Shown here piece by piece: positions 3,417 to 28,316 of a stretch of 32,000 nt of DNA. Positions within the stretch are counted from its first letter, which is position 1. Each line of letters begins with the position of its first letter. Position numbers and translations under genes: made by a program. Source of the stretch: an archaeon (lineage in GTDB: Archaea; Asgardarchaeota; Thorarchaeia; Thorarchaeales; Thorarchaeaceae); assembly GCA_024275415.1 (NCBI GenBank), contig JAJRZD010000059.1:54169-86168 (forward strand), written 5' to 3'. Under the pieces are notes generated by a model. That model made no database searches. It saw nothing but the letters and a program-made list of their open reading frames with translations, and had not been told where the DNA came from.

Positions 3417-3523
3417 GAGTTGGATCGGTATTCAAAGTAAATGCATACAAGTGATAAGAACTCGATCAGAAAGACTGCACTATCCAACAAGCAAGTACAT
3501 ATGGTTCTACCCAGTGAAAAGGA

Positions 3524-3931
3524 TTGAAGGTGGAAATGTTGAATGCTGAAAGGGGGTTTGGCAAAGCACAGATGTATAGAGATATTGCCCTCGAGTCAAT
3601 TGAAAAGAAAAGATTCGACTTTGCCGGATTCTCAGCTCAACAGGCAGTAGAATTCTTTCTTAAAGGATTCCTGATCGAACTTGTAGGAGTTCGGCCATAC
3701 ACGCATTCGCTCCCTGAACTGTTAGCGGCCCTTAACGAAGCAGGTATAGAAAGTCCTCCCGATGTCAAGGACTGTGTGAAAAGTCTTGCAGAACATTACA
3801 TTCAGGCCCGCTATCCTGATGCTCGCGTGACAGAATATGACCACGAGGAGGCAATTGAAGCCATCAAGTGCATGGAGGTGACCCTCGATTTCCTTACCAA
3901 AATTCATACGGAGTCTTCGAAAGGCAAATGA
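3524..3931 (+). CDS. HEPN domain protein (COG2250-like toxin of HEPN-MNT module); start probably ATG 3536
   Basis: FSAQQAVEFFLKG, YTHSL and HYIQARYPD motifs typical of archaeal HEPN. Directly upstream of an MNT. Confidence 0.92.
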   Translation: MKVEMLNAERGFGKAQMYRDIALESIEKKRFDFAGFSAQQAVEFFLKGFLIELVGVRPYTHSLPELLAALNEAGIESPPDVKDCVKSLAEHYIQARYPDARVTEYDHEEAIEAIKCMEVTLDFLTKIHTESSKGK

Positions 3932-4316
3932 AAGGAAAACAAAAGACTTCGATGACTTCGTGAGCCTGCTAAGAGACCGTCTGATAGAACGCGGGAGCGC
4001 ACTCCTCTTTGGCTCAAGAGCGCGTCAGGACTCTCACTGGATAAGTGATTTTGATGTGCTTGTGCTACATGATAATGTGGACAACGCTGACTCATTACGT
4101 TACTGGGCAAGGGGATACAGTGTAGACCTCTTTGTCATTGACTTGGCATCGACCAAGGAAGAGATAGAAAGAATGAACACTGTGCTCCTTGATGCATTGC
4201 TAGAAGGCGTCATCTTGTTCGATGATTTGGACACGATAGAGGAACTGAAAGAGTTCACCCTGGATATGGTCAGGACGCGAGGATTAAAAAGGCGTAAAGA
4301 TGGGGGGTATTGGTAA
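3888..4316 (+). CDS. Minimal nucleotidyltransferase (MNT antitoxin); ORF-track start is GTG 3960, but the frame is open from 3882 with a candidate ATT start at 3888
   Basis: LFGSRAR..SDFDVLV signature (hG[GS]x9-13Dh[DE]h), third acidic residue in VDLFV, and helical LLDALLEG tail. Confidence 0.88.
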   Translation: MSLPKFIRSLRKANERKTKDFDDFVSLLRDRLIERGSALLFGSRARQDSHWISDFDVLVLHDNVDNADSLRYWARGYSVDLFVIDLASTKEEIERMNTVLLDALLEGVILFDDLDTIEELKEFTLDMVRTRGLKRRKDGGYW

Positions 4317-4395
4317 CAGCCGTTCGAAAGAAAGTCCCCACTATCGGCCTGCAATGGTTCATCTATCCTAGGATAAGGCTAATACGGAAACTATC

Positions 4396-4414
4396 TTCCG
4401 GAGATACTCCGGAA
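4396..4414. other. Perfect inverted repeat TTCCGGAG-ATA-CTCCGGAA in the gap after the TA module
   Basis: 8-bp stem with a 3-nt loop read directly. Function unknown (terminator or binding site). Confidence 0.35.
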
Positions 4415-4660
4415 TCAAACAGAAACAGCAAAAGGGCGGGGACATATGTCATTTTATCATAACCTTTGACAAAATACGAACTCCGATCATCGGGATGTGA
4501 TAGTACACATGGTCATGCAATACAAGCCATTTCATTTCATTGCATATTCTGTTTGTCTTTGCAAGTCCTAGTAGCTCGATTAATGTCATATAGATTGTAT
4601 ATGCTCATTACATCCAAATGATGATCCTCCTACCCCGCCTCCTGAAAACCGATAGGCCTG

Positions 4661-6079
4661 TCACGCTAAGAACGTGATGGCTTCCTCTTCGAACAGGCAC
4701 CTTGAGAGGTCTACGTATGGGTCCACCATCAGGGACACGCCCCGCCCGAAGGTTATAGTACAGTCAGGTGCGTCCTGCATGAGGGGGGACACCACCACAG
4801 GCACCGGGCGTTTCGGGTCTGGGTTCTTGTCACTATGGAGGTACACGTGCCTGAGCGTGGCACCGCCCACGTGATCCAACTGGACTGGGGACGCCCCTCT
4901 GAAGTCACTCAGGTCAAGGTAGAGGCGTTCCAACGACTTGAACTTTACCAGGGGGAACAGGGACTTTTCTGACGTGGGGGCATAGTGAAGTTCCCGCACT
5001 CCCGCGCAGTCGTCCACAGTCAGGAACCATACCCAGTCAAGTCCAGCCTTGCCGGACAGGGACAGACGGTTGATGTTGGATGCACGCATGAAGGCATGTG
5101 GGTCGAAGACTGGGACATCACACCCGTAGGCGAACTGTGTCAGGTGAGGGAACGTCCCCTCTGAGGGCACGAGTTTGTCCCCGTCCAGTCCGCACTCGTC
5201 CACGACCAGCACTTCGAGGTTTTTGTGCTGGGCGAGGGACGGTACGTTGTGCAGCACAACACCCATCAGGTCAAGAGTCATGATCTGGGTACATCCAGAC
5301 AGGATGTCAAGGTCGAAGGGATGCCTCCCCCTGAAGCGTTCGATACTGCGGACTATGAGGGGGCGGTAGGTGCCCACGCATACATGACGTGCCTCCTGCG
5401 AGTCTATCGTTTTCTTGTCGTAGGAGTGGGGCAAGATCGACAGCACCCTGCCGTTCCATGTCGGGTCAAGGTCCGACATATAGTGCTTCGCAGCCGACAT
5501 CTCGGCAAGGCACTCTTTTTTCTGTTCATTCCACAGGTGTACAAGACCTCTTAGTGCTAGGAGCAGGGTTCTACCCGAGGAACTGCTCCTGACCTGACGG
5601 GCATAGGAGATGACCTCCTCGAAGCCTTTCCGTTCCTCAACAAGGACGTCCCCGAGGGCCTCGAAGGCGGACATGACCACCATCACCTGTTGGAGGAGTT
5701 CGTTGTCGTACGTGTCCCCTTGCCTCGCAAGCAACCCCATGGTGTACTCGCCGCGGTCGTATAGTTCTGCGGTCCTGAACCGGGTATCATCGATGCTCAT
5801 TACAGCGTGGTGCAACACCCTGATGTTTGCTTCCTTCAGTACGGGCACGTCGGACAGGGATATGGCTGCTCCTTTCCTGAGTAGAGACCGTGGGGCGAAG
5901 GAGTCTCTTTGTCCCCCCATATGTTCTTGGAGGGTGTGTCCGTTGTAGGTGTGGTAATTGATCCTCTGGAGTGCCTTCAAGGCGTTGCCAAGGTAGTCCT
6001 TGGGCACCAGCATAGTACAGATGTCCTTGTAGAACGCGTACGCTGCAGAATAGGGGTCGGACTTGTCGAAAGGAAGCAT
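4661..6079 (-). CDS. Multi-domain protein: putative degenerate TFIIB second cyclin repeat + helical region + C-terminal leucine-rich repeats
   Basis: LRR-like segments FDLDILSGCTQIMTLDL, LAQHKNLEVLVVD, LVKFKSLERLYLDL. N-terminal SDP...LVP...PRSL...AAI...RFRTAEL resembles TFB repeat 2. Same frame as the upstream ORF. Confidence 0.6.
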   Translation of the reverse strand: MLPFDKSDPYSAAYAFYKDICTMLVPKDYLGNALKALQRINYHTYNGHTLQEHMGGQRDSFAPRSLLRKGAAISLSDVPVLKEANIRVLHHAVMSIDDTRFRTAELYDRGEYTMGLLARQGDTYDNELLQQVMVVMSAFEALGDVLVEERKGFEEVISYARQVRSSSSGRTLLLALRGLVHLWNEQKKECLAEMSAAKHYMSDLDPTWNGRVLSILPHSYDKKTIDSQEARHVCVGTYRPLIVRSIERFRGRHPFDLDILSGCTQIMTLDLMGVVLHNVPSLAQHKNLEVLVVDECGLDGDKLVPSEGTFPHLTQFAYGCDVPVFDPHAFMRASNINRLSLSGKAGLDWVWFLTVDDCAGVRELHYAPTSEKSLFPLVKFKSLERLYLDLSDFRGASPVQLDHVGGATLRHVYLHSDKNPDPKRPVPVVVSPLMQDAPDCTITFGRGVSLMVDPYVDLSRCLFEEEAITFLA

Positions 6080-6109
6080 CGTGTATCATCAATCTTTCTT
6101 TGAAAGCTC

Positions 6110-6802
6110 TTATAAAGACAAGCACTCGTCCCCGACAGTTGCCAACGGACAGGCACCACTCGTTGGCAACTCTGTGAGGGGGATGTAAATACGACTGGTC
6201 CTATAACCAATAAACAACGAAGCTATTATGCTTTGTAGGATGGACATACCCCTGTGTACCCCCTGTCTGGCTGCCAGGCGATATATGTGTAATGCCCTAT
6301 TAATGATCGCAGGGGGTGTTTGTAGTTGGGATGTGAACACGCGCATATCGCTCCACGCCTGTATCAGGTTGCGTTGGAACGAATCAGTATGGACTTCTGT
6401 AGTACGGTGGCGCTGCCAATGCGAAGCAGTACCTATTTTGAAGAAGGGGGCGACATTCCCTCGTATCCTATGGGTTTTGTCGAGGTTTTGTGGTACTTTT
6501 GGTTCCCACAGCCAGTCTGGAAAATCCCCTTCGTTACCGAAGACGAGTCCACAGTTATCCTGTTCATGTCCTAAGTCGTCCTGTCCCGTTTGGACGAGTA
6601 TCTCCTGCATGTCCCTGCTCTCGTGTCCTTTCTCGTCGATATGGAACTTTTTGAAGTAACATACGGGACACTGTAGTGGATAGAGTTTTTTTACTGGGTC
6701 TTTTTGTGCTTCGTAAATCGGTTCTTTGCAATGACGACAGACGAACCGGAGGACTACAGGTTCACCTACCACCGGTGTGATGGCAGTGATTTTCCCCAGC
6801 AC
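6110..6802 (-). CDS. MCM N-terminal OB-fold/Zn-finger fused to TFIIB first cyclin repeat; possibly a pseudogene fragment
   Basis: N-half KFIQVLG..FVCRHC..Q..P..CPVC..F..DMQEILVQ..RIRGNV follows the MCM OB/Zn pattern. C-half WQR..DSFQRNLIQAWSDMRVFTSQLQTP..ALHIYRLAARQGVHRGMSI..ASLFIGYR follows TFB repeat 1. Confidence 0.75.
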   Translation of the reverse strand: MLGKITAITPVVGEPVVLRFVCRHCKEPIYEAQKDPVKKLYPLQCPVCYFKKFHIDEKGHESRDMQEILVQTGQDDLGHEQDNCGLVFGNEGDFPDWLWEPKVPQNLDKTHRIRGNVAPFFKIGTASHWQRHRTTEVHTDSFQRNLIQAWSDMRVFTSQLQTPPAIINRALHIYRLAARQGVHRGMSILQSIIASLFIGYRTSRIYIPLTELPTSGACPLATVGDECLSL

Positions 6803-6839
6803 CTGGATAAATTTGTCCTAATGTCCTGCGTCATGGTAG

Positions 6840-7865
6840 TTAATAGAAGACCACTTGAACATCCTTCAACCGCTCCCTCAACGGCCATGTTTTATCCATG
6901 ACCGTGGATCGATACTTTTCTGCAATCCGAATGTTCACATGTGCATCCACGGTCAGGTATTGGAACTCTTTGCAGTTCATTAGAGGAGTGAGATCCAATT
7001 CATCAAGCATATTGTCCTCCAGCCGTAGATTTTTCAATGTCGTCAGTTCGGATAGAGGAGAAAGATCGATGGATTCAAGCCTATTGCCATCCAACTGTAG
7101 ATTCTCCAATGTCGTCAGTTCGGATAGAGGAGAAAGATCGATGGATGAAAGGCTATTCCCGTGAAGGTCAAGATATTCCAATGGGCACTGTGAAAGAGGA
7201 GTCAGATCCAACTTTCTCACGTCAGCACATCCTGCGACTGTCAAACGTTCAAGGTTCTCACACTGAGGTAATGTGACAGGAGTTCTGTTTTTGACGATAC
7301 TACCAAGCATATGCATCGGATGAAGCAAATCCCCTAAGAACAATGTTCGCAGTGACCTTGAACCTGACAATGGCGTGAGATCAAATTGATAATGTGTCAC
7401 TGTGTTGATGAAGAGTCGCTCTAGCGAGGGACACTCTGACAGTCCGTCTAAAATGATGGACTCTATAGGGCCCTCTACCTCGATGTTCTTAATACTCGCA
7501 CTCCGCCTCAACGGGCTCAAATCCACCGAGTTCATCTGTGAACCACGAACTTGAAGATTCAACCTCTCAAAAGTCGGGAGCTTGCAAAGTCCTTCTAAAT
7601 CGATTGCCTGCATGTTCTGAGCTCTGCTCACTGAGAACCCCCGAAGGTTGTCAAATTTGCTGAACAAACTAGTGTCAATGAATTCATTCTTAATGTAGAA
7701 AGAGGAGATATTCTCGATATTCGGAGCAATGTCTACGACTTGTTCTACAAGTTTTTCATCAATGTATATCTGTGAGAAAGTGCAATTTTTTATATCATCA
7801 GGCACTTCCTTGACTGTGAGCGTGCCATCTTTGAGCACATCGGGACTTATTGTCAAATTATCCAT
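6840..7865 (-). CDS. Leucine-rich repeat protein with ~24-aa repeats of type IDLSPLSELTTLENLQLDGNRLE
   Basis: Repeated DLSPL/DLTPL...LxxLxLxxN units across most of the protein. Confidence 0.93.
   Translation of the reverse strand: MDNLTISPDVLKDGTLTVKEVPDDIKNCTFSQIYIDEKLVEQVVDIAPNIENISSFYIKNEFIDTSLFSKFDNLRGFSVSRAQNMQAIDLEGLCKLPTFERLNLQVRGSQMNSVDLSPLRRSASIKNIEVEGPIESIILDGLSECPSLERLFINTVTHYQFDLTPLSGSRSLRTLFLGDLLHPMHMLGSIVKNRTPVTLPQCENLERLTVAGCADVRKLDLTPLSQCPLEYLDLHGNSLSSIDLSPLSELTTLENLQLDGNRLESIDLSPLSELTTLKNLRLEDNMLDELDLTPLMNCKEFQYLTVDAHVNIRIAEKYRSTVMDKTWPLRERLKDVQVVFY
7035..7146. repeat. Two identical 40-bp copies at 72-bp period (adjacent LRR units)
   Basis: CAATGTCGTCAGTTCGGATAGAGGAGAAAGATCGATGGAT at 7035-7074 and 7107-7146. 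Confidence 0.95.
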
Positions 7866-7933
7866 AGTTGTAGAACTCTATGTGGGACATATGAATTTAC
7901 AGCCTGAGATGGCGCTATAAGACAATCTGATAG

Positions 7934-8308
7934 TTGAAGAAACAGAGTTCCCGATTAGTAGTTCATCTCACAAAGAAATGCTTCATTCTTGCTCGATTTC
8001 CAAAGGATGGTCATTTGCCGATGAATATCGTCGCGCTGTTTATGTGGAAACACCCGAGCATACAGTATAGCAATCGTTGGCCCGGGTGTGATAGAAGAGG
8101 TTTCATACTTTCTGCAAGCGAGGTTCAAAAGAAAGAAGAAAACAAATCTGGTGGTTACGATTGCATAATCATCCAGTTCATGGACATAGACAATATCAAA
8201 AAGGCACGCATTACAACTCCCAAATTCTTTACCTCAGAGTATGATCATGTCAAGTACCAAAGAGCCATTATTCAGATGGCTAAGATGTATGATGAGAGGT
8301 TTGGGTAA
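7934..8308 (+). CDS. Hypothetical protein (124 aa), AT-rich, no recognised family
   Basis: Fills the gap between the LRR gene and the methyltransferase and ends 1 nt from the convergent MTase stop. No motif recognised. Confidence 0.5.
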   Translation: MKKQSSRLVVHLTKKCFILARFPKDGHLPMNIVALFMWKHPSIQYSNRWPGCDRRGFILSASEVQKKEENKSGGYDCIIIQFMDIDNIKKARITTPKFFTSEYDHVKYQRAIIQMAKMYDERFG

Positions 8309-8309
8309 A

Positions 8310-9956
8310 CTATCGATTGTACCGCCTACCACGCAGCATTAGAGCACCTTTTCGCAGTAGCTCGATGTCAGCGGCAGACAGCCCAAGGTGGTTCTGCAGT
8401 ATGATGGTGTCAACCAGTGTTGTTGCCTCATCCATGTTCTTACTTCGAAGGAGCTCGTCAACCTCACGGACTAGAGAGCTCATCGTTTTTGAAGACATGT
8501 CAGGGATCGCAATGAAGGTCTTTTGAGCCTCGCCAGGCTCAAGCTTCAACATGCCTCCACCCATGCTATGCCCTTCGATCTCAGTACTCAATAATGTCAA
8601 ACTAGTTATCCAAGATACTGCAAGTTCGTTCATCGACACTTCTGCATTCTCTTTCAGGCGAACTATGAGGAGTGTGTTGGGCGCCACGACATCGGCTGTA
8701 TTGGAAACCAGTTTTGCACGTTTTCCGCTCATATAGGTCAACAAGCCATCGCAAGAATAGACATGAGGGACTACATACCACGGCGACCGAACTCTACATT
8801 TGTAGGACTTGTGAACACCATGACGCTCACCATATCGTATATAATCGAGAACAGAAGAGGGGAGTATGCCCGATGCACGGGATAAGTCAAGGAGGAAGTT
8901 TGCTGAACCACGACCGATAAGGGATTCCCAATCGTGTCGAGTAAACAAAAGCCCTGATAGCTGAGAACCTGTTCTGACACAGGGAGTTAGATACTCCTCA
9001 GGGATATGCCATGTTTCTGCATCCTCCTTTGTCAAATGAAAGAAGTCATTGTTGCCGGTTACATAGCCGATGTTCACAATTGCAGCATCACCAAGACGGA
9101 TGACCTGTCCACTTGATTTTAAGCGATTGTACAATTTTATCGTGTCAGCGGGCAACAGGTATTCCAGAAGTCGCGATTGTCCTGATACTATGTTAGAGAT
9201 GGATACAGGTGTCTTTCCACGGAGAGGCAGTTTGAGAGTCTTGAGCGATTCCAGATCAACAATTGACATGGATTGAGGAGGATGTCGAAAGCCGTCACAC
9301 AAGAGCAATAGCGCATCCTGTGACAAGTCAGGGAATATCCTTCGTCTAAATGTGATGAGGATGACCTCTCGAAAGGACTGCGAGATAAATCTCAAAACAG
9401 GCTGAGCGTACGAAGCATGCATCAACTCTGCGGGGACGACCATCGCCAAACGGCCGCCTGCACGGAGAAAGCTAGCTGCATGAATCAAGAACGGCGACCA
9501 TGACGAACTCAGACCATTCAGAGTAACTCCAAGATTACGAACACGTGCCATAGCCTTCTCGCGTACACGACCTTTGAATCTTTGATATCGGATGAAAGGC
9601 GGATTGCCAGCAACAACATCGACAAGTGGAATGTCTGGTTGTTCAAGGGAAGTCCCATTCTCTCCTAAGACATCAAAAAAATCAGCTTTGATGAGATTGG
9701 CTTGGGGGATCTGAGAAAGACGGCTGACAACTGAGTCATAGACATTATGATCTATTTCAACACCATGAATCTGGTGTGGTTCACCACCAATCTCTTTCAA
9801 TCGCTCACACGCGGCATCGAGAAAGACACCATCACCAAATGACGGATCAAGAATGGTGTCAGTGGGCTTGCGAATAGCCCATGTCACTAGAAAGCTCGCG
9901 ATAGAAGGGTCGGTATAGAAAACACCCAGCTCCTTCCTTCTCTCCGCCATACTCAT
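8310..9956 (-). CDS. N6-adenine DNA methyltransferase, gamma class (Eco57I/TaqI-like MTase domain), apparently solitary
   Basis: GVFYT, motif I LDPSFGDGVFL, motif IV GNPPFIRYQ, RLAMVVP, and C-terminal PWY...GGGMLKLEP region. Confidence 0.93.
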   Translation of the reverse strand: MSMAERRKELGVFYTDPSIASFLVTWAIRKPTDTILDPSFGDGVFLDAACERLKEIGGEPHQIHGVEIDHNVYDSVVSRLSQIPQANLIKADFFDVLGENGTSLEQPDIPLVDVVAGNPPFIRYQRFKGRVREKAMARVRNLGVTLNGLSSSWSPFLIHAASFLRAGGRLAMVVPAELMHASYAQPVLRFISQSFREVILITFRRRIFPDLSQDALLLLCDGFRHPPQSMSIVDLESLKTLKLPLRGKTPVSISNIVSGQSRLLEYLLPADTIKLYNRLKSSGQVIRLGDAAIVNIGYVTGNNDFFHLTKEDAETWHIPEEYLTPCVRTGSQLSGLLFTRHDWESLIGRGSANFLLDLSRASGILPSSVLDYIRYGERHGVHKSYKCRVRSPWYVVPHVYSCDGLLTYMSGKRAKLVSNTADVVAPNTLLIVRLKENAEVSMNELAVSWITSLTLLSTEIEGHSMGGGMLKLEPGEAQKTFIAIPDMSSKTMSSLVREVDELLRSKNMDEATTLVDTIILQNHLGLSAADIELLRKGALMLRGRRYNR

Positions 9957-10036
9957 TATAATTTCATCCGCTCACAGTACTTGATTGCAGACTGATAATA
10001 TAAATTCATCAATTGGAAATGCGCCGGCGTGCCATG

Positions 10037-10055
10037 TGCATCCAAGTGGGATGCA
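10037..10055 (-). terminator. Short hairpin just after the oxidoreductase stop
   Basis: TGCATCC-AAGTG-GGATGCA, 7-bp stem. Confidence 0.3.
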
Positions 10056-10058
10056 TGA

Positions 10059-14330: not shown

Positions 14331-17207
14331 ATGTTGTCGATTGTTCAGGATATTTTGAAAGATATTTCTGGTATTCATCCCGACATAACTTTGAAGAATC
14401 AGATACTCTCGTTGGCTGGAACTATCACCGCAACGATAGGACTGGTATTTTGTGAGAGCACTATAGGTTATGCGTGGGAAAAAATCGAATGGGTCAACAA
14501 TCAATTCAATGTGGCAGTCATATTTTATTTTTCCATATTTTGGCTAGTCATTGTTCTAAGTAACCTAAATAGGCCTTTAGTTGTTCCATTCTTTTTGCTG
14601 GTTTCTGAGGCATTAAGATATTATTATTACCAATTACTATCCCAAATAGAATATGAATTAATGTCATTGATCATGTCTACAGTAGCACTTGTAGGGGGTA
14701 TCATTCTCACAAAAATAGATTACCGCAGCATAATCGGTTCATTTCGAGAGCAATCACATTTATTGAAATCCATGCATAATATAACTTTGATAGCATCGCT
14801 TGTTGCTTGGATTAGTTTGTATATTTCAGGTCATTTCATTGAAACGTGGATTAACATTATCATCTCGTTTGCGACCATCGGGCTGACGATATCATATGCT
14901 ACAAAGAATAAGACATTGAACATCGTGTTTTTACTTAATTACATTCTGGCATTAGGAGTCGTTGTCTTTATTCTCAGCAATTTAGTTTATAATGGGATTA
15001 TTCTATTAGTTACATCTACATCCCAATGGATTGCATTTGTTTTTGCCGTGTCTACATTTGCTGGTTATCTTGTGAGCGAATGCATCAACCTAGAAAAAAT
15101 GATGAGATGGTTTTTAATAGCACTAATGATTCTCTCTACCGCAATAATCTTGCTTCCTGTTTCAGTAGTTCTTGTTTATTCATTCACATCACATAGTTCA
15201 ACGGCAGTCGTGCCTGTCATTGAGTTAGTCATATTCATTAGTCAATTGATTGTCATACTTGGATTTGGTATATATTATCACCACCCAGATAAACAACGGG
15301 CATTCATTTTCTTTGCAATTGGATATTATTCATTCATCACATATTTCCCTATCCTTACCCCGATAGGAATATCATACTATGCATATGATGGTTTATTCAA
15401 TTTGTTATTTCAGGAAACCCATGGAGTATTAGTAACCGCTACCTTGACACTTTTAGTATTGGTGTTAATCAGCAGTAGAAACAATGTAGGATTTGAAATC
15501 CTCGAGCTTAATCTTGATACGATCAAATTCCGAATAGAGAAAATGCACAAAAAAGAGATAACTTTTGACACGCCAAAGGAAAGAAAATCATTACAAAATA
15601 GAATACAAAAGGACTATGATACAATTGAATTAATGCTTGCGGAGTTGGCGGAACATCACAACATAACCCCCTCCATATCAGAATCATGCGATAAGATGAG
15701 GGCGTTACTTGATAAAACATACGACAAAATCATGCAACAGGTAAAAGATCGAAACAAGATACTAGCCATGGCGAACAGACTCGATGAGGAACTGCTTACA
15801 GAAATCAAGAATGCCGATGATGTTTCAAGACCACTAACCATTAGGCTTGAAGCTCTTCAGAGAAAACTTGCTGAAACAGTGAGAAAAACAGACACGATTC
15901 CCGAACCACCAAAGTGGATTCTAAAGACGTTACAGAAAGCTCGAAGAAAAATTAAATTCTTGGAAAAGTATCCAGCCCACAATAGTTCAAGGGTACCTCA
16001 GATTGTAGAAAGAATACCCGAAATAAAGACAACGGAAACATCAGCTGAGATATCGTCATCATCATCAGTTGCTACCGAAGATCCAATCACCGATGAGTTA
16101 AAGGAAATTAAAGTAACAAGAGGCTATGTCATTTCTGGGGGCACATTCCAATACAAGGTTAAAATTGAGAATAACACATCTTATGTCATTACCGACGTAG
16201 GTGTTTCAATAATTTCATATCCTGAAGATTGCATGGAGCTAGGAGAAGCGAGATTTCGTAAGATTTCCAAGATAGAACCGAAGGGATTCAGGTCTCTCGA
16301 ATTCACACTCATTCCTACAAAGGATTGCGTAAAAGGGGCAGTTCTTGCTAACGTATCCTTTGTGGATCACACTGGAAAGATGCAGTCCTACAATGTAGAA
16401 CCCCAAATCATACGTTCCGTATGTGACCTATTGATTCCACTAAAGACGTCACTAAGCCAATTTTACGATTTGCTTGATAAATGCCATGCGGATGGAACTA
16501 GGAAAGAAGAAAGAATAGAACAAAATGTGCAATCCATGTATCATAAGATAAAAAGTACTCTTCCCAGCATGAATTTCCACATCATTCATAGTGAATCAAA
16601 TAATATTGGAGGACAATTCTTTGGCACTGTAAGAGCTTCGGCGAAGGGAAAGTACAACCGTAACCAAATTATCCTTGAAATTATAGCAAGGGGATTCCTA
16701 GAAGAAGATGAGTGTCGGGTTACAATCAGTGCCTGTGGCGACAATCCTAACATGCTCCCAATAACTATAGTTGAAATGATAAAAGAATTTAGGAAAGATG
16801 TTCGTCAACTGAAAAGCTTGATGAGTGTAATTTACAAAAACACTGCTTCTCTGATGGATGCAGCAGGGGAGAGCCAACAGAATCAAGATTTAATCATGAA
16901 ACACCTCAAAAACATAGAAGCAAAGACTGATGCGAATTCTCTTTTCACAAAAGATTTTCTAACCAGTATCCATGATGCGCTAATGTCTGCTGAAAGTACG
17001 TCTAAGCAAAACGAAATTGTGCTTCAGGAAATACTTGATAAAGTCGACTTTTTAGCTGAGAAACACAAGCTACCAAAAAAGCTCCGAAATAGAATTTCAG
17101 GCAGCATTCGTTCATTGTCAAAATCTGTAGTAAAAGAAAGCACAGCATCTTTGCTCTGGGGGGCTGTAAGGGCAACATTAATCATACTTGGGTTTCAAAT
17201 CGTTTAG
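14331..17207 (+). CDS. Polytopic membrane protein with coiled coil and putative GAE + platform (adaptin/coatomer/BBSome appendage-like) region
   Basis: About 380 aa with roughly a dozen hydrophobic segments, a charged helical region, a beta-sandwich pattern (YKVKIENNTSYVITDV...IEPKG...VSFVD), then PLKTSLSQFYDLL and an alpha/beta platform pattern. Confidence 0.8.
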   Translation: MLSIVQDILKDISGIHPDITLKNQILSLAGTITATIGLVFCESTIGYAWEKIEWVNNQFNVAVIFYFSIFWLVIVLSNLNRPLVVPFFLLVSEALRYYYYQLLSQIEYELMSLIMSTVALVGGIILTKIDYRSIIGSFREQSHLLKSMHNITLIASLVAWISLYISGHFIETWINIIISFATIGLTISYATKNKTLNIVFLLNYILALGVVVFILSNLVYNGIILLVTSTSQWIAFVFAVSTFAGYLVSECINLEKMMRWFLIALMILSTAIILLPVSVVLVYSFTSHSSTAVVPVIELVIFISQLIVILGFGIYYHHPDKQRAFIFFAIGYYSFITYFPILTPIGISYYAYDGLFNLLFQETHGVLVTATLTLLVLVLISSRNNVGFEILELNLDTIKFRIEKMHKKEITFDTPKERKSLQNRIQKDYDTIELMLAELAEHHNITPSISESCDKMRALLDKTYDKIMQQVKDRNKILAMANRLDEELLTEIKNADDVSRPLTIRLEALQRKLAETVRKTDTIPEPPKWILKTLQKARRKIKFLEKYPAHNSSRVPQIVERIPEIKTTETSAEISSSSSVATEDPITDELKEIKVTRGYVISGGTFQYKVKIENNTSYVITDVGVSIISYPEDCMELGEARFRKISKIEPKGFRSLEFTLIPTKDCVKGAVLANVSFVDHTGKMQSYNVEPQIIRSVCDLLIPLKTSLSQFYDLLDKCHADGTRKEERIEQNVQSMYHKIKSTLPSMNFHIIHSESNNIGGQFFGTVRASAKGKYNRNQIILEIIARGFLEEDECRVTISACGDNPNMLPITIVEMIKEFRKDVRQLKSLMSVIYKNTASLMDAAGESQQNQDLIMKHLKNIEAKTDANSLFTKDFLTSIHDALMSAESTSKQNEIVLQEILDKVDFLAEKHKLPKKLRNRISGSIRSLSKSVVKESTASLLWGAVRATLIILGFQIV

Positions 17208-22019: not shown

Positions 22020-25000
22020 TCATGGAGCTAGGATTGGCATCATATAGACACCGAATAGCACCAGTGATCCAATGAGCGCGAACAGTATCACCAAACGGAC
22101 ATACGCTAGTCGAGGCTGTTCAGCCTCACGCTCCTTGATGAATAGTGCAGTGAAGAGCAGGAAGGGTGCCAAAGCCAACAAGAGTCCTTGGACAAACTCG
22201 CCAATTGCAGAGGTCAGTGATGTGAAGGCAAAACCAGTGATAGCAAAGAAGAGGGGTGCGGCAAAGAGATGTTTTGAAACCCTTAATGCCACTGGGAATA
22301 TGACCCACGCTGCGACGAACATCGCGAGGTAAAAGCTCAACAACGCTGGGAACCACGAAAGCGAGATGAGATAGGTGGTCATCGCGGAGGTAAGAGATGT
22401 CGCAATCCACAGCGCAGTTCGTAGTGACTCGTTCAACAGGCGTGTGAATGTCGAAAGGAGCAGGAACAGTGTCCCTATCATGATAGCAAGCGAAAGGGAC
22501 ATTGGAGTAAATCCGAGAAACTCGCTAATGATCAGAGAAACCGCGACAGGGATTGGTACCCAGAAAACCGAGATTCTCGCGCCTTCGATGCGTTTCTCAA
22601 GGAGGACAGAAAGCCCGCCCAAGGAGGTAAAGACCACACCAAGCCCGATTGAAAGAAGAACGAAGCCGTGATCAAGAAGCCAAGTGCTGGTGGTCACTGC
22701 AGTCCCACCTAGCGCGATGAGGATGCAAGAAACCCCAAACAGAGACTTTACCCGTCTACGGATTATTGCGATCGTAAGGAGAAGCAGACCGAGAATCATG
22801 ACTGACATGCTGTATCTCGGCACCCAATAGAGGACACTGCCGGGGTTCATCCCAATAAGGTCGCTAAAGAATGACTGAGAGAAATAAGACAGACCTAATG
22901 CGAAGATAGATGAGAACATGACCCAATTGATGTAGCCGAATCGCTCGAAGAAGATGCGGACAGCATGAGCGAATCTACGAAATGCTCGACCAATCAGGGT
23001 TCCTATGTCCATTAGGGCTCTGCCAATGACCCGAATGACCCTAGCAAATACAGCAAGGGCACTGGTTATAGCAGACTTGAGGAAGGGGGTTTCCATGACA
23101 AAAGCAAGGAATAGCGCAACTCCTAGTGCGGTGGACGGGTAGAGCCCATTGTGAATTGTCAACCCGAGGAAGGTAGCAGGGAGAATGACTATGCCTGACA
23201 GCATCCAACTCCGTCGAGCAGGATTCATAAATCCGAAGAGGTAGTTAAGCCCTGCCATTAGCATGAGTGATACTGCAATCGACCCGAGGATATGATACGA
23301 AATGACGAGGACATCAGGAGGTGACTCGGGGAGATAGATGCTCAACAGAAGGATCGCAGTGCCTCTCCCCAACAATGCAACCGATGGGGCACGAACCCGC
23401 TTGTTGATAGTCCCGTTCGCAAAGGCTCCTTCCAAGAGATACATCACACCCATTGAAACCGTAGCAACAGACATGGCTTGTAGATAGTGCCGTACATCCA
23501 ATCCGAGAAGAGGACGTGCCGTCTGGAAAAGGAAGAATGACCCGAACCAGACCCCCACAATCACTGGAAGGACAAGCGCGATATTCACAGAGTTCAGCTT
23601 GATGAAAGTATAGAACCTCACCAAGCCAGAATACATGTATCCGCCTAGTGTTGGGATCTCAAGCATTCCCCAAATTGCGATGATGAGGATGTAACTTGGA
23701 ATGCTGGGAACAAAGGCGAATACAGACCAGATGAGAAGGGCCACTGACGAAGAAACCATCGCGTTGACAAAGAGCAGAAGTGATCGTCTGGGCTCAGGAT
23801 GTACAAGAACGAATATCAAAGATGCAAATGAGAAGCAGAGAGAAGTGGCCTGCACAACGAATGTCGGATTGAAGAGAACCGAGTACGAGTAGCCAATCAA
23901 CGTCCAACCAGGGATAGACAGGCTCCACGTCATATGGGACACTTGCTCACTCGAAAGCTCACCCTGTTTTGCCTCATTATACCTGCCCATTGAACCAGAA
24001 AGCACGGAGAATATCGACAGGCTCCACCCAACAGAAAGCAGAATGTTAGGAGGGGGGAGAAGAAGGGCAATCTCCCATCCTGAGATGAATGCACCTAGTG
24101 TTATAGACAGAAGAATAGAAACAAAGTCCCATACCATCTCGAAGTCGAGCCATGTGAGATTCTTAGTGACTGGAAATACTACGGTTGTTGTGAGCAGGAA
24201 TGATGCCCCGAGAAGTAGGACTGAAAGAGGTAGAGCGAAAACCAGAACTGCATGCCAAACCCAGACCACTTCGACCAATACAATTGCCGTTGTGCAGAAG
24301 GATCGGGAGATGCCTTGCTGGACGATGCCACTCCAAGGGGTCCAGATGGATGACAGATACCACACAAATAGTGCTGTCGGAATGACAAGGAAGAATGATT
24401 CGACAGTTCGGTACCCGATATACCAGAGTGAAGAGAATATTGCAGACGACAGGACTCGCAATATTTGCCAGTAGATTCTCCGTTCAGACTCAAAGGATGT
24501 AACGAAGAGTATGCCAAGAGCTGTCATCGATGAAATCACAGCAGATTGTAACAGGTCAACGCTCAGAAGTAGGGACAGGTAGGAGAAAATTGTGACGCTG
24601 AGAGTGAATGAGAGGATGTTCACAAGGATGAACCTTGTTTCCCTCTGAACTTCACCCCAGTTAGAAATAACAGTGATTGTAAGGAACGCCAGTATCGAAA
24701 CCTCGACTGAGAGAATCGAACCCGGCGGGAGTGACCCGTACAATATCACTGTCAGTAAAATTGCTCTGAGTATCCCTAGCTTGTCTGAATGCTCTGAGAA
24801 ACGGTATTCGCTGTCAGGAGTAAGCCTCACCAGCTCCACAGCCACCAAGATTGGTACTGTGTATTGCACTAGTGGTAGGAACCAGAACAGGAGGAATGTC
24901 ATGTAGCCTGACGCGATGCTGAAAAGCCACCACACTTGCCAAGATCGAGTTTCCTGTGCAAGGGTGAGGAAGAGTGTTTCTGTCACCACAAAGCTGGTCA

Positions 25001-28000
25001 GAGTAAGCCACAGCCCTGCGACAGGTAAGACGACCGCATACATGAAGGTCCCAATCGCTGCCGCAGTAGTAATCGGGTAGAGGATACGCCAACGCGTCAC
25101 AGAACTCGCAAAGGGTATCGTAAGAAAAGACACGGTCAAGATGGATAGCCCTGCATAAACAACTGGCTCTACTGCAAACAGGTTCAGTAGTAGAAACGCA
25201 AAAGCGCATGACGAAACTGCAATCACCATATTCCTGCGTTCGTAACCACCCAGGCCCAGTCGTACAAGGAAGGATGAGACCGCAAGGGCGATTAGTATCG
25301 CATTCATTAGTCCCCAAGAGAGGGACGTAAGGAATGCCAATCCACCCGATGACAGCGCAGACATGATTACAATCAGCGACAGCACTCGGGGATAGTCAGA
25401 ACGTCGCGTGATAGCAGTAGGCGCCCAGACGAGGGCAGTCAAGAGAGTGACAATGAACACAAAATGGAACTGCCAATACTCGTGCACAAGTAGTGCCGGT
25501 AGCAGTAGTTGGACGACCAGCAGCGCGATGCTGAAACTGAATATGCCCATAAGAAGAACAATGTGTGCTGCAATCAGCAAGAGAACGAAACGTACCGCCA
25601 TACCAACCGCAGAGGCAACCATGCGTATACCTGTGGTTATCCTAGATCCAATAAACAGCATGACCGCGCCAAGCCGTTTCACCACGATGAGGTACTGCCG
25701 GTACAGAACTATGCAGGGAAGAGCGACCAACGTGGCAATTGTGAGTATATAATCGAACGATACAAGATAGATGATCAGAGTGCCAGTCGGGACGCAGAGA
25801 AGCAGGAATATCAGAGAGGACACACGAACAAGCCGAGGGTTAAGCCTCAACGGCAACCCGCCCAAACCAAATATGAAGCTGGATAACAATAATGCCATGA
25901 GCTGACCCATCTCAAGTGTGGTCAGGTAAGTAAGATTGGAAACCCATACCAAGAAAGTAAACCACGAAAGGTAGGACAGCATGCTTCGAGACCTTTCGCT
26001 GGCTTGCGACCTAAGAGCATTGAGAAGCAAAAAAGTCACAACGGCCGAGAACGAGTATCGCAGTGATATGTGAGCGTATGGAAAGAAACTGAAGGCGAAT
26101 ACTCCTGCCGCAAGAGCAAGCACAGTCATGCAAGCAGACCTCAGACGACCCTTGTACATCCCTTTTGCTATTAACGATGGAGTAAAGAGGACTAGATAGA
26201 GCAGGGTCAATCCCGAGATAAGATATAATGGGTCAATATCAGTAGACATGGTGAACAAACTAAGCCCATACTGACCCAAGAAGTAGATGAGGACTACAGC
26301 GTACAATACCACAACGAACCTGACAAGCTGAACTGCTAGCCACACGGCACCGCGATAGATGACACCTCCAATGCGAATTAGCCCACGCTTTATTACATTG
26401 CCAACCCTAACGAGAGCTGCCTTGATGGTACCTCCGATTCGTGTGAGGACAGACGCAATTCGCCTTGCTACAAGTGCAATGCCACGGGAGAGGGCTGAGA
26501 ATGCCCGTATGTATTCCTGATGAAGCAAGCCTCCTGAAACGAATAATAGAGCGGCGATGGTCAACAAGGGAAGCTGATTGACGGAGAACTGAATTTCAAA
26601 CAGGTAGAGTGTCCTTCCCAGACCAATGACTCCAATTGTAAAAGGAAGTGATAGGAAACGTTTCCTTATCCCTAGACCCTGAAGGAGAGCGAAACCAAGG
26701 AACCAGATAGATGCCAAAGAAAGTGCGGTGTACCAGTCATAGAGTGGTGAGAAGAACCAATACGACAATGCAGCAATACTTAGGAAAAGGACACTGACCC
26801 CTGCAGCATGGATATCCCTCTTGCGAGGATAGGCTTTGAGTGCAGTCACACCAATCATACCCAGCAATGTAAAGACCAATGCAGCACTCGAACCCATGAT
26901 GAGAAACGGTTGATGTAATGATGATGCGAATGGATAAATGACGAATGCGACCACAACGGACGTAATCACCGTGTCAGTAGCAATACCGAACATCACCGCG
27001 TGGGCTTTGATCCAGACCCATATCCTGCGAGCAGCACCAGCAATCCGAGTCCATGCTGCCCTCCAGAGCTTGCGAATCTCCTTGAATATCCCAGTGATGC
27101 CAGACACGAAGACGATGACACTAAGCGGAAGAGAAGCCGGGATGAGGTAGAACTGCAACCATGCAAAGAGATTGAATGCCGCTAGAACAACGATGATAAA
27201 TCCTAGGGATTTAACAACTTTGGATTCCCGAGACCTTTCAATCACTCCACTCAATCGGAATGCCACTGGTGCAGGGACTACGATCAACAGAGAGAGTAGT
27301 ATCGCCAATGGGATGAAAAGGATTGGAAATGCGACCTCTAAAGCCCACGGTGTGCTACTGATGAGCCAGAGGAAATAGGTAGGTACTCCTGATGCGATGA
27401 ACAAAAGCGAAATGCCAGAAAGAAGAAGTGCTTTTCTAGACTCAATGAGCCAGATTGTATCCTCAATAGATATCTGTTGAAGAATTTGCTTCTCAGCCTC
27501 GTATTCGGGCGTCAGCCCTACTGACCTGAGCATCTCCTCCTGCTTCAAAATGGCTTCATGTTTCTTGAAAGGCTTTTGAGTTATCGAACGTTGGATGAAG
27601 CGATACACCTGCGTAGTCATTAGAAAAGATATCCCAAATCCCAAAAGGAACGCAGATAGGGTCACTGAAAGTACAGAACTAGGTAGGATAGACAAGTGTG
27701 AATTGGTGATGAAGAACCCCAACCCTACAGCAAGTAGCAGGGCATTAAAGGATCCAAGTCTAGCATCACGGAGGAGATACTGTGTCCCCTGGGTATATAA
27801 CCACAAGAGCAGACTAGCAACGACCACAATACCCGCAATCTCGACCCCAATGCCCTGAAGGTAAAGGACTGCGGGGAGAGGTGCAGAGGCGATGATGGTA
27901 GCTGAAAGGACATTCCTCACTTTGAGCCATTTGAAATGCGAGATTGCCAAACGGACTCGTAGGTATCGGAATACCCCCAAAAGGCAAACCAAGAATACAT

Positions 28001-28316
28001 GAACAATCACAATTGTAGCAAAAGGTGTATTCCAGAACATTGCCAGCGATATAGCTCCAGCCCCAGCAGCTGTAACTGTAAGGAAGCTTCCTCTGACGAG
28101 ATATTTCATCCTTGCGACAAGGACTCCTGCCAGCCCCAGACCAAAGGTCATAGAGAACATACCTCTCACAAAGGAGTCTGGTATGATCCCGGCAAATAGC
28201 GTGAAGACTGCAAGCCAAATGGCAGTGGGTATTATTATGACAAGCACTAACAAACGGGCAATCGCCTGAATGAGGTCGGCGACACGCGCGGCTTTTTCAA
28301 TCCCCTTCTCACTCAT
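22020..28316 (-). CDS. Giant (2098 aa) polytopic membrane protein of unknown function
   Basis: Uninterrupted 6.3-kb ORF made almost entirely of hydrophobic ~20-aa segments with short loops, plus Arg-rich amphipathic inserts. Confidence 0.9.
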   Translation of the reverse strand: MSEKGIEKAARVADLIQAIARLLVLVIIIPTAIWLAVFTLFAGIIPDSFVRGMFSMTFGLGLAGVLVARMKYLVRGSFLTVTAAGAGAISLAMFWNTPFATIVIVHVFLVCLLGVFRYLRVRLAISHFKWLKVRNVLSATIIASAPLPAVLYLQGIGVEIAGIVVVASLLLWLYTQGTQYLLRDARLGSFNALLLAVGLGFFITNSHLSILPSSVLSVTLSAFLLGFGISFLMTTQVYRFIQRSITQKPFKKHEAILKQEEMLRSVGLTPEYEAEKQILQQISIEDTIWLIESRKALLLSGISLLFIASGVPTYFLWLISSTPWALEVAFPILFIPLAILLSLLIVVPAPVAFRLSGVIERSRESKVVKSLGFIIVVLAAFNLFAWLQFYLIPASLPLSVIVFVSGITGIFKEIRKLWRAAWTRIAGAARRIWVWIKAHAVMFGIATDTVITSVVVAFVIYPFASSLHQPFLIMGSSAALVFTLLGMIGVTALKAYPRKRDIHAAGVSVLFLSIAALSYWFFSPLYDWYTALSLASIWFLGFALLQGLGIRKRFLSLPFTIGVIGLGRTLYLFEIQFSVNQLPLLTIAALLFVSGGLLHQEYIRAFSALSRGIALVARRIASVLTRIGGTIKAALVRVGNVIKRGLIRIGGVIYRGAVWLAVQLVRFVVVLYAVVLIYFLGQYGLSLFTMSTDIDPLYLISGLTLLYLVLFTPSLIAKGMYKGRLRSACMTVLALAAGVFAFSFFPYAHISLRYSFSAVVTFLLLNALRSQASERSRSMLSYLSWFTFLVWVSNLTYLTTLEMGQLMALLLSSFIFGLGGLPLRLNPRLVRVSSLIFLLLCVPTGTLIIYLVSFDYILTIATLVALPCIVLYRQYLIVVKRLGAVMLFIGSRITTGIRMVASAVGMAVRFVLLLIAAHIVLLMGIFSFSIALLVVQLLLPALLVHEYWQFHFVFIVTLLTALVWAPTAITRRSDYPRVLSLIVIMSALSSGGLAFLTSLSWGLMNAILIALAVSSFLVRLGLGGYERRNMVIAVSSCAFAFLLLNLFAVEPVVYAGLSILTVSFLTIPFASSVTRWRILYPITTAAAIGTFMYAVVLPVAGLWLTLTSFVVTETLFLTLAQETRSWQVWWLFSIASGYMTFLLFWFLPLVQYTVPILVAVELVRLTPDSEYRFSEHSDKLGILRAILLTVILYGSLPPGSILSVEVSILAFLTITVISNWGEVQRETRFILVNILSFTLSVTIFSYLSLLLSVDLLQSAVISSMTALGILFVTSFESERRIYWQILRVLSSAIFSSLWYIGYRTVESFFLVIPTALFVWYLSSIWTPWSGIVQQGISRSFCTTAIVLVEVVWVWHAVLVFALPLSVLLLGASFLLTTTVVFPVTKNLTWLDFEMVWDFVSILLSITLGAFISGWEIALLLPPPNILLSVGWSLSIFSVLSGSMGRYNEAKQGELSSEQVSHMTWSLSIPGWTLIGYSYSVLFNPTFVVQATSLCFSFASLIFVLVHPEPRRSLLLFVNAMVSSSVALLIWSVFAFVPSIPSYILIIAIWGMLEIPTLGGYMYSGLVRFYTFIKLNSVNIALVLPVIVGVWFGSFFLFQTARPLLGLDVRHYLQAMSVATVSMGVMYLLEGAFANGTINKRVRAPSVALLGRGTAILLLSIYLPESPPDVLVISYHILGSIAVSLMLMAGLNYLFGFMNPARRSWMLSGIVILPATFLGLTIHNGLYPSTALGVALFLAFVMETPFLKSAITSALAVFARVIRVIGRALMDIGTLIGRAFRRFAHAVRIFFERFGYINWVMFSSIFALGLSYFSQSFFSDLIGMNPGSVLYWVPRYSMSVMILGLLLLTIAIIRRRVKSLFGVSCILIALGGTAVTTSTWLLDHGFVLLSIGLGVVFTSLGGLSVLLEKRIEGARISVFWVPIPVAVSLIISEFLGFTPMSLSLAIMIGTLFLLLSTFTRLLNESLRTALWIATSLTSAMTTYLISLSWFPALLSFYLAMFVAAWVIFPVALRVSKHLFAAPLFFAITGFAFTSLTSAIGEFVQGLLLALAPFLLFTALFIKEREAEQPRLAYVRLVILFALIGSLVLFGVYMMPILAP

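Follow-up and report, generated by a model that had tools for sequence, protein, structure and literature searches.

Integrated elements of archaea are known to harbor both TFIIB homologues and recruited MCM helicases, the TFIIB homologues having been found on integrative-conjugative elements (PMC6563490); for the description of mobile-element-borne archaeal MCM helicases, that article cites Krupovic et al. (2010). A further mobile-element MCM, a 687-residue full-length protein referred to here as P0002, is encoded on a 50.6-kb contig of the Logan assembly of SRR13394437 together with ParA/ParB, ArdC-N/MPTase-PolyVal, AAA ATPases and an Arf-family GTPase. This contig carries its own 294-residue TFB, 1.9 kb from the MCM gene, and is a candidate plasmid/ICE-like element of an Asgard archaeon. 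Reuse of MCM N-terminal sequence without the AAA+ domain also occurs: a relative of the genome studied here (G009, contig C22, L043:1372-2595, minus strand) encodes a 407-residue MCM_N+MCM_OB+NucS_C protein that lacks AAA+. For TFB, the archaeal TFB/TFIIB cores 1D3U and 1AIS provide the structural reference.

Here, we analyze a composite open reading frame (ORF) in a 32,000-nucleotide stretch of an archaeal contig (the window), in which a piece of an MCM gene and a piece of a TFB gene are joined in one frame. It resembles the 407-residue protein in that MCM N-terminal sequence without a motor is joined to an unrelated module; in that protein, however, MCM_N is present, MCM_OB is complete (profile positions 2–124 of 126) and the partner domain is whole, whereas the pieces in our ORF are all partial. 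With mosaic pseudogenes in variable islands the ORF shares truncated domains, homology that runs through a stop, singleton status and a composition-mixed, strain-specific block; it differs from them in having an unusually long and clean composite frame, free of internal stops and frameshifts through all 235 codons. The features are as follows.

3417..10058, unstranded: mosaic island of 6.6 kb, strain-specific, with HEPN/MNT, a 472-residue orphan, the chimeric ORF, LRR341, a 124-residue ORF and an Eco57I-like methyltransferase
4661..6079, minus strand: 472-residue orphan, the downstream neighbor, GC3 0.72
6110..6169, minus strand: 19-residue tail without homology, then the TAA stop
6170..6418, minus strand: TFB-derived segment (end of the B-linker, helices 1–3 and start of helix 4 of cyclin repeat 1)
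6420..6562, minus strand: joining stretch, residues 86–132, no significant homology, contains 'NCGLV' (6542-6556)
6572..6847, minus strand: MCM-derived segment (start of the OB fold, four-Cys zinc finger and next strand; P0002 residues 109–200)
6800..6802, minus strand: GTG, the sole candidate start near the 5′ end of the ORF, five codons past the TAG
6818..6820, minus strand: in-frame TAG within the MCM-derived segment, at the position of P0002 Leu118 (translation and tblastn alignment)
6840..7865, minus strand: LRR341, a 341-residue leucine-rich-repeat protein, the upstream neighbor, Pfam LRR_8 E = 5e-10

Two truncated pieces in one frame

The ORF (6113-6817, minus strand) comprises 235 codons open from stop to stop, with the TAA at 6110-6112, and would give a product of 230 residues from its first start codon, the GTG at 6802. 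Its two pieces derive from MCM and TFB genes, both are truncated, and the ORF is confined to this genome. The original prediction, made from the DNA letters, had described it as a chimera of an MCM OB-fold/zinc-finger module and a TFIIB cyclin repeat, and the searches agree with it on the identity of both parts.

Searched exhaustively with HMMER, 1.84 billion cluster representatives yielded seven proteins, namely, the ORF itself, five TFBs and a single MCM, P0002, whose residues 119–203 match ORF residues 1–85 at 55% identity (E = 9.4e-25). BLASTP against P0002 residues 119–200 gave 47 identities over 82 positions with zero gaps, and overall the identity to P0002 is 55–57%, ungapped; tblastn of P0002 against the window aligns 92 residues (55% identity, E = 6e-30). 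Pfam MCM_OB (PF17207) scores 28.5 bits against a cut-off of 24.8 bits (E = 1.4e-6), with residues 2–81 on profile positions 12–88 of 126. The zinc-finger cysteines C27, C30, C50 and C53 are all shared with P0002 (i.e., subdomain B is kept), and the ten codons above the TAG together with ORF residues 1–85 are collinear with P0002 residues 109–203. The string 'RIRGNV', which had been counted toward the MCM motif, is supported by no search.

Compared with P0002, which consists of MCM_N, MCM_OB (residues 110–238), a P-loop domain and a lid, the ORF nevertheless keeps only ∼95 of 687 residues, and a nonsense codon interrupts the piece. Homology begins at P0002 residue 109, and MCM_N subdomain A (PF14551) has no Pfam match in the ORF. 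The OB barrel is incomplete: its last ∼38 profile positions (89–126) are unmatched in the ORF, and by tblastn a counterpart of P0002 residues 204–238 is absent from the window in every frame. Neither the AAA+ motor (PF00493) nor the lid is matched in the ORF or the flanking DNA, in line with the earlier claim that the ORF lacks an AAA+ domain.

P0002 is the only close relative of the MCM piece that we found. Longer proteins and viral, genome and metagenome contigs yielded no closer one, and a search with the MCM piece alone came up empty in 400 genomes of the phylum. The MCM of the host (contig C43) shares ∼30% identity with the fragment and 40% with P0002, so the fragment was not copied from the host gene. 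The positions at which fragment and P0002 differ include 3 of 19 family-conserved columns as against 34 of 78 columns overall (P = 0.004); because they avoid the MCM-conserved columns, most of the divergence predates the break and arose while the sequence belonged to a working MCM.

The second piece, ORF residues 134–216, aligns with TFB cyclin repeat 1 (hhalign probability 98%, E = 2e-13). A TFB profile from relatives scores 57 bits (profile positions 121–199 of 320), and the PDB TFB cores 1D3U/1AIS match residues 144–216 (E = 8e-6; 1D3U_B residues 3–75). Pfam TFIIB (PF00382) reaches 23.2 bits, just below its cut-off of 23.6 bits, with residues 149–214 on profile positions 3–68 of 92; of the two Pfam hits that had been anticipated, the one to MCM_OB was thus obtained and the one to TFIIB narrowly missed, with the TFB assignment carried by the other profiles. 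Like the archaeal TFB/TFIIB cores, the ORF keeps motifs of the RNL, YR, RGxSI and AxLY type, and nearly all TFB columns that are invariant in alignment A5 are kept over the covered stretch (counted by eye). Unlike these cores, it has no detectable zinc ribbon, B-reader or repeat 2, and its repeat 1 is cut short, without the last helices. Pfam and the TFB profile find one partial repeat only; cyclin repeat 2, which bears the BRE-reading helix-turn-helix, is missing. The zinc ribbon (PF08271, Zn_Ribbon_TF) has no Pfam match at E ≤ 1, as had been predicted; the companion claim, that the B-reader is missing, needs the qualification that in the B-reader/B-linker region the linker end 'WQ..R...VH' aligns and the remainder is unmatched.

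The closest TFBs are only 37%–39% identical to the TFB half. The piece scores 33.8 bits against the conserved TFB on contig C20 and 13.8 bits against the two neighboring TFBs at 97-2127, which upholds the suggestion that it is not a local duplicate, and with identities of ∼30% and ∼37% a local duplication of host MCM or TFB genes is rejected. A continuation of the TFB into the downstream 472-residue ORF was likewise rejected (TFB profile −3 bits, hhalign probability 0.05%).

No second protein carrying both halves was found among the 1.84 billion cluster representatives, among 5.8 billion proteins, in the genome, viral or metagenome contig collections, or, with the whole ORF as query, in the 40 nearest genomes. 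The architecture had been held to be undescribed, and in the searched proteins, contigs and genomes it is indeed seen nowhere else; the same searches gave none of the intact full-length homologues that had been proposed as a check. A conserved orthologue is absent and the presence of the ORF is lineage-specific, as counted for a gene relic.

The 5′ end, the join and the predicted fold

MCM-like DNA, mapped by tblastn with P0002, begins at 6847, i.e., 30 nucleotides upstream of the ORF, and runs through the in-frame TAG; the start of MCM homology, which had been placed at about 6838, thus lies outside the ORF. In fixed register, 4 of the 10 codons above the TAG are identical to P0002, for which the chance is ∼0.002, and the frame above the TAG closes again 15 codons further up. 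The end of the LRR gene marks the limit of the MCM homology; the final codons and stop of this gene overlap the MCM-derived DNA in another frame. Parent-gene homology (MCM match 6847-6572) therefore reaches past the ORF and across a stop, a second property counted for a gene relic. Readthrough of the TAG by pyrrolysine was rejected, since TAG is an ordinary stop in this genome, where it terminates 490 of 1417 long ORFs, and neither PylD nor PylS was found in it. The ORF has no ATG at its 5′ end, the next one being codon 71, and no ribosome-binding motif was seen upstream of the GTG when the sequence was read by eye. Its spacing is tight, with 37 nucleotides to the upstream neighbor and 30 nucleotides to the ATG of the downstream neighbor, all three being co-oriented.

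Neither the MCM piece nor the TFB piece contains a frameshift, and no remaining part of the MCM OB fold or of TFB was found in other frames, as a hidden frameshift would leave. The joining stretch and the tail are unmatched in any frame; genome-wide, they gave only one chance-level hit, in a non-coding frame. The joining stretch does contain the string 'NCGLV', which scores against ribbon-half profiles at a level reached by 10–13 of 3000 shuffles (p about 0.004) and against a longer ribbon profile at a level reached by 112 of 3000 (p = 0.04), three profiles having been tried. 'NCGLV' may be what is left of the second half of a TFB zinc ribbon, a suggestive but weak lead from sequence; if so, the TFB piece would start near residue 88 and carry an internal deletion.

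AlphaFold2 (AF2) predicts residues 1–80 (strands and zinc finger) and residues 143–235 (helices) with confidence (pLDDT 85–97), separated by a 62-residue stretch (residues 81–142) with pLDDT below 50, and the whole-model pTM is 0.44. A Foldseek search with the model finds MCM N-terminal domains (∼80 columns) and 1d3u_B (93 columns, rmsd 1.8). The input alignment consists of fragments of both the MCM and the TFB families, and because it was built from these parent families the fold match indicates compatibility and is no proof of folding or function.

The island and the host genome

The ORF lies in the 6.6-kb mosaic island, the flanking macro-like and Pyr_redox genes of which are only 43–800 bp apart in three congeneric genomes; with the flanks near-adjacent in these congeners, the block is strain specific. 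The island is single copy in the genome, and no att-like flanking direct repeats were found at its ends. GC3 changes between the adjacent minus-strand ORFs, from 0.72 in the 472-residue ORF to 0.52 in the chimera and 0.49 in LRR341. LRR341 is one of many LRR paralogues in its family. The 472-residue ORF has no match in the genomes of 60 relatives; it may be LRR-like, the atlas leads to LRR reaching just 0.84. The chimera and its two neighbors match no PADLOC model.

Several observations on the surroundings may be recorded here. The Eco57I-like N6-methyltransferase of the island is solitary, with no nuclease partner seen. Within the LRR gene, positions 6981-7124 hold two tandem 72-nucleotide units that are 79% identical, a trace of a recent duplication of an LRR repeat. 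Elsewhere in the window, positions 97-2127 contain a tandem pair of full-length TFB genes in direct orientation, which share ∼70% identity, and this position is kept in 6 of 6 congeneric genomes searched. Two long ORFs have no Pfam match: one of 2098 residues (22020-28316, minus strand) in a stretch of strong AT skew (0.2–0.35), and one of 958 residues (14331-17207, plus strand) in a low-GC patch (35%–39%).

The genome is archaeal and of Asgard type, with several TFBs, an MCM, many LRR proteins and a eukaryote-like actin (444 bits). Its apparently only full-length MCM gene (C43 ∼46556-48571, L019) has an in-frame TGA in the N-terminal domain ('...DTVDE*LIKVRI...'), and the MCM genes of relatives G012 and G052 have one in-frame TAG each; these stops could be consensus errors, recoding or fresh nonsense mutations.

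Origin of the composite frame

In our view, the ORF is probably a young relic in which pieces of mobile-element MCM and TFB genes form a mosaic. This reading is favored because the 5′ end is broken, both folds are truncated, the linker is unmatched and an ATG is lacking, and because the ORF is a singleton in a mosaic, strain-specific island. On this account, a piece of a mobile-element-type MCM gene, comprising the OB start and zinc finger, would have been joined to a piece from a divergent TFB gene that covers cyclin repeat 1 and perhaps a scrap of the TFB zinc ribbon. Illegitimate recombination or a deletion in a genomic island with fast turnover would have made the join, the parent genes presumably having been cargo of a plasmid/ICE-like Asgard element. 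The frame would still be open since the event was recent and each piece stayed in its parental frame, and the product, if made at all, would have no selected function.

Several features count against a relic: the 235-codon open frame, the kept zinc cysteines and TFB columns, the lack of an internal frameshift, the operon-like spacing, the confident AF2 modules, and a TFB half with no relative closer than 38%. As to the first, 235 stop-free codons have a chance of 8e-6 in random sequence; with parental frames kept, what is needed is an in-frame join (1 in 3) plus a short open tail (0.39) or, as the alternative to the latter, an open stretch of at most 69 codons (0.03), which is unremarkable for a case drawn from a very large scan.

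The strongest competitor is a functional orphan (i.e., a recently born chimeric gene), which we regard as unlikely. Such a protein would be laid out, as modeled, as a small zinc-finger/partial-OB module, a disordered linker and a TFB cyclin piece of three helices; its role would be that of a decoy or regulator that, for example, titrates TBP or poisons MCM rings, and it might act with the flanking LRR proteins in a defense-type or mobile-element-derived island. Its open codons, the conserved residues kept in both modules, its tight spacing to co-oriented neighbors and the match of the confidently predicted modules to PDB MCM N-terminal domains and the TFB core all speak for it, as do the AAA-less reuse of an MCM N terminus in the relative and the presence of a toxin-antitoxin pair and a methyltransferase in the island. 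Against it stand the incompleteness of both folds, homology that crosses the upstream stop, a GTG start in place of an ATG, with no ribosome-binding motif seen above it, and the failure to find a second instance in the searched proteins, contigs and genomes. PADLOC models match neither the ORF nor either neighbor, the sharp GC3 differences among the three ORFs imply that they were not inherited as one unit, and the AF2 confidence leans on the parent-family alignment. The more specific form of this idea, a newborn expressed MCM-TFB decoy that disturbs TBP/TFB promoter complexes or MCM ring assembly, for instance in a host conflict with MCM- and TFB-carrying plasmids, would be more doubtful still. 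The proposal that an MCM DNA-binding/oligomerization module has replaced the RNAP-recruiting part of TFB is not supported: the modules are incomplete, the 5′ homology lies across the TAG, the join is unmatched and modeled with low confidence, and the ORF is a singleton in a strain-specific island.

An assembly artefact, in which MCM and TFB reads of different molecules were joined in a metagenome contig, is very improbable. The assembly does consist of 127 contigs with an estimated contamination of 4.5%, and several genes in the genome have unexpected in-frame stops; yet the region is central in a contig of 86 kb, occurs only once and offers an assembler no repeat for switching, the halves are not copies of the host MCM or TFB (∼30% and 37% identity), and it would be odd for a false join to be in frame and to hold ∼50 unrelated codons between its two pieces. 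That the ORF is a diverged TFB paralogue whose zinc-ribbon region resembles the MCM zinc finger by chance, as a weak, gappy BLAST alignment strung from the first CxxC to cyclin repeat 1 of a host TFB and the ribbon-like 'NCGLV' might suggest, is refuted by the HMMER and BLASTP match of its N-terminal 85 residues, ungapped at 55%–57% identity (E = 9e-25), to a specific full-length MCM, and Zn_Ribbon_TF gives no match at E ≤ 1.

If the ORF were functional, an MCM-TFB hybrid would link parts of replication and transcription initiation in an undescribed way, in the archaeal lineage closest to eukaryotes; were the decoy reading true, the ORF would stand as the first hybrid of MCM and TFB and would exemplify the exaptation of domain fragments in Asgard archaea. 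As it is, the young mosaic relic that we favor indicates that variable Asgard islands gather fragments of the replication and transcription genes of mobile elements, and that long, clean ORFs, annotated as proteins by gene callers, can arise when such fragments fuse. ORFs of this kind are raw material for gene birth as well as a source of false "novel architectures," and the present one points to a type of plasmid/ICE-like Asgard element that carries both MCM and TFB.
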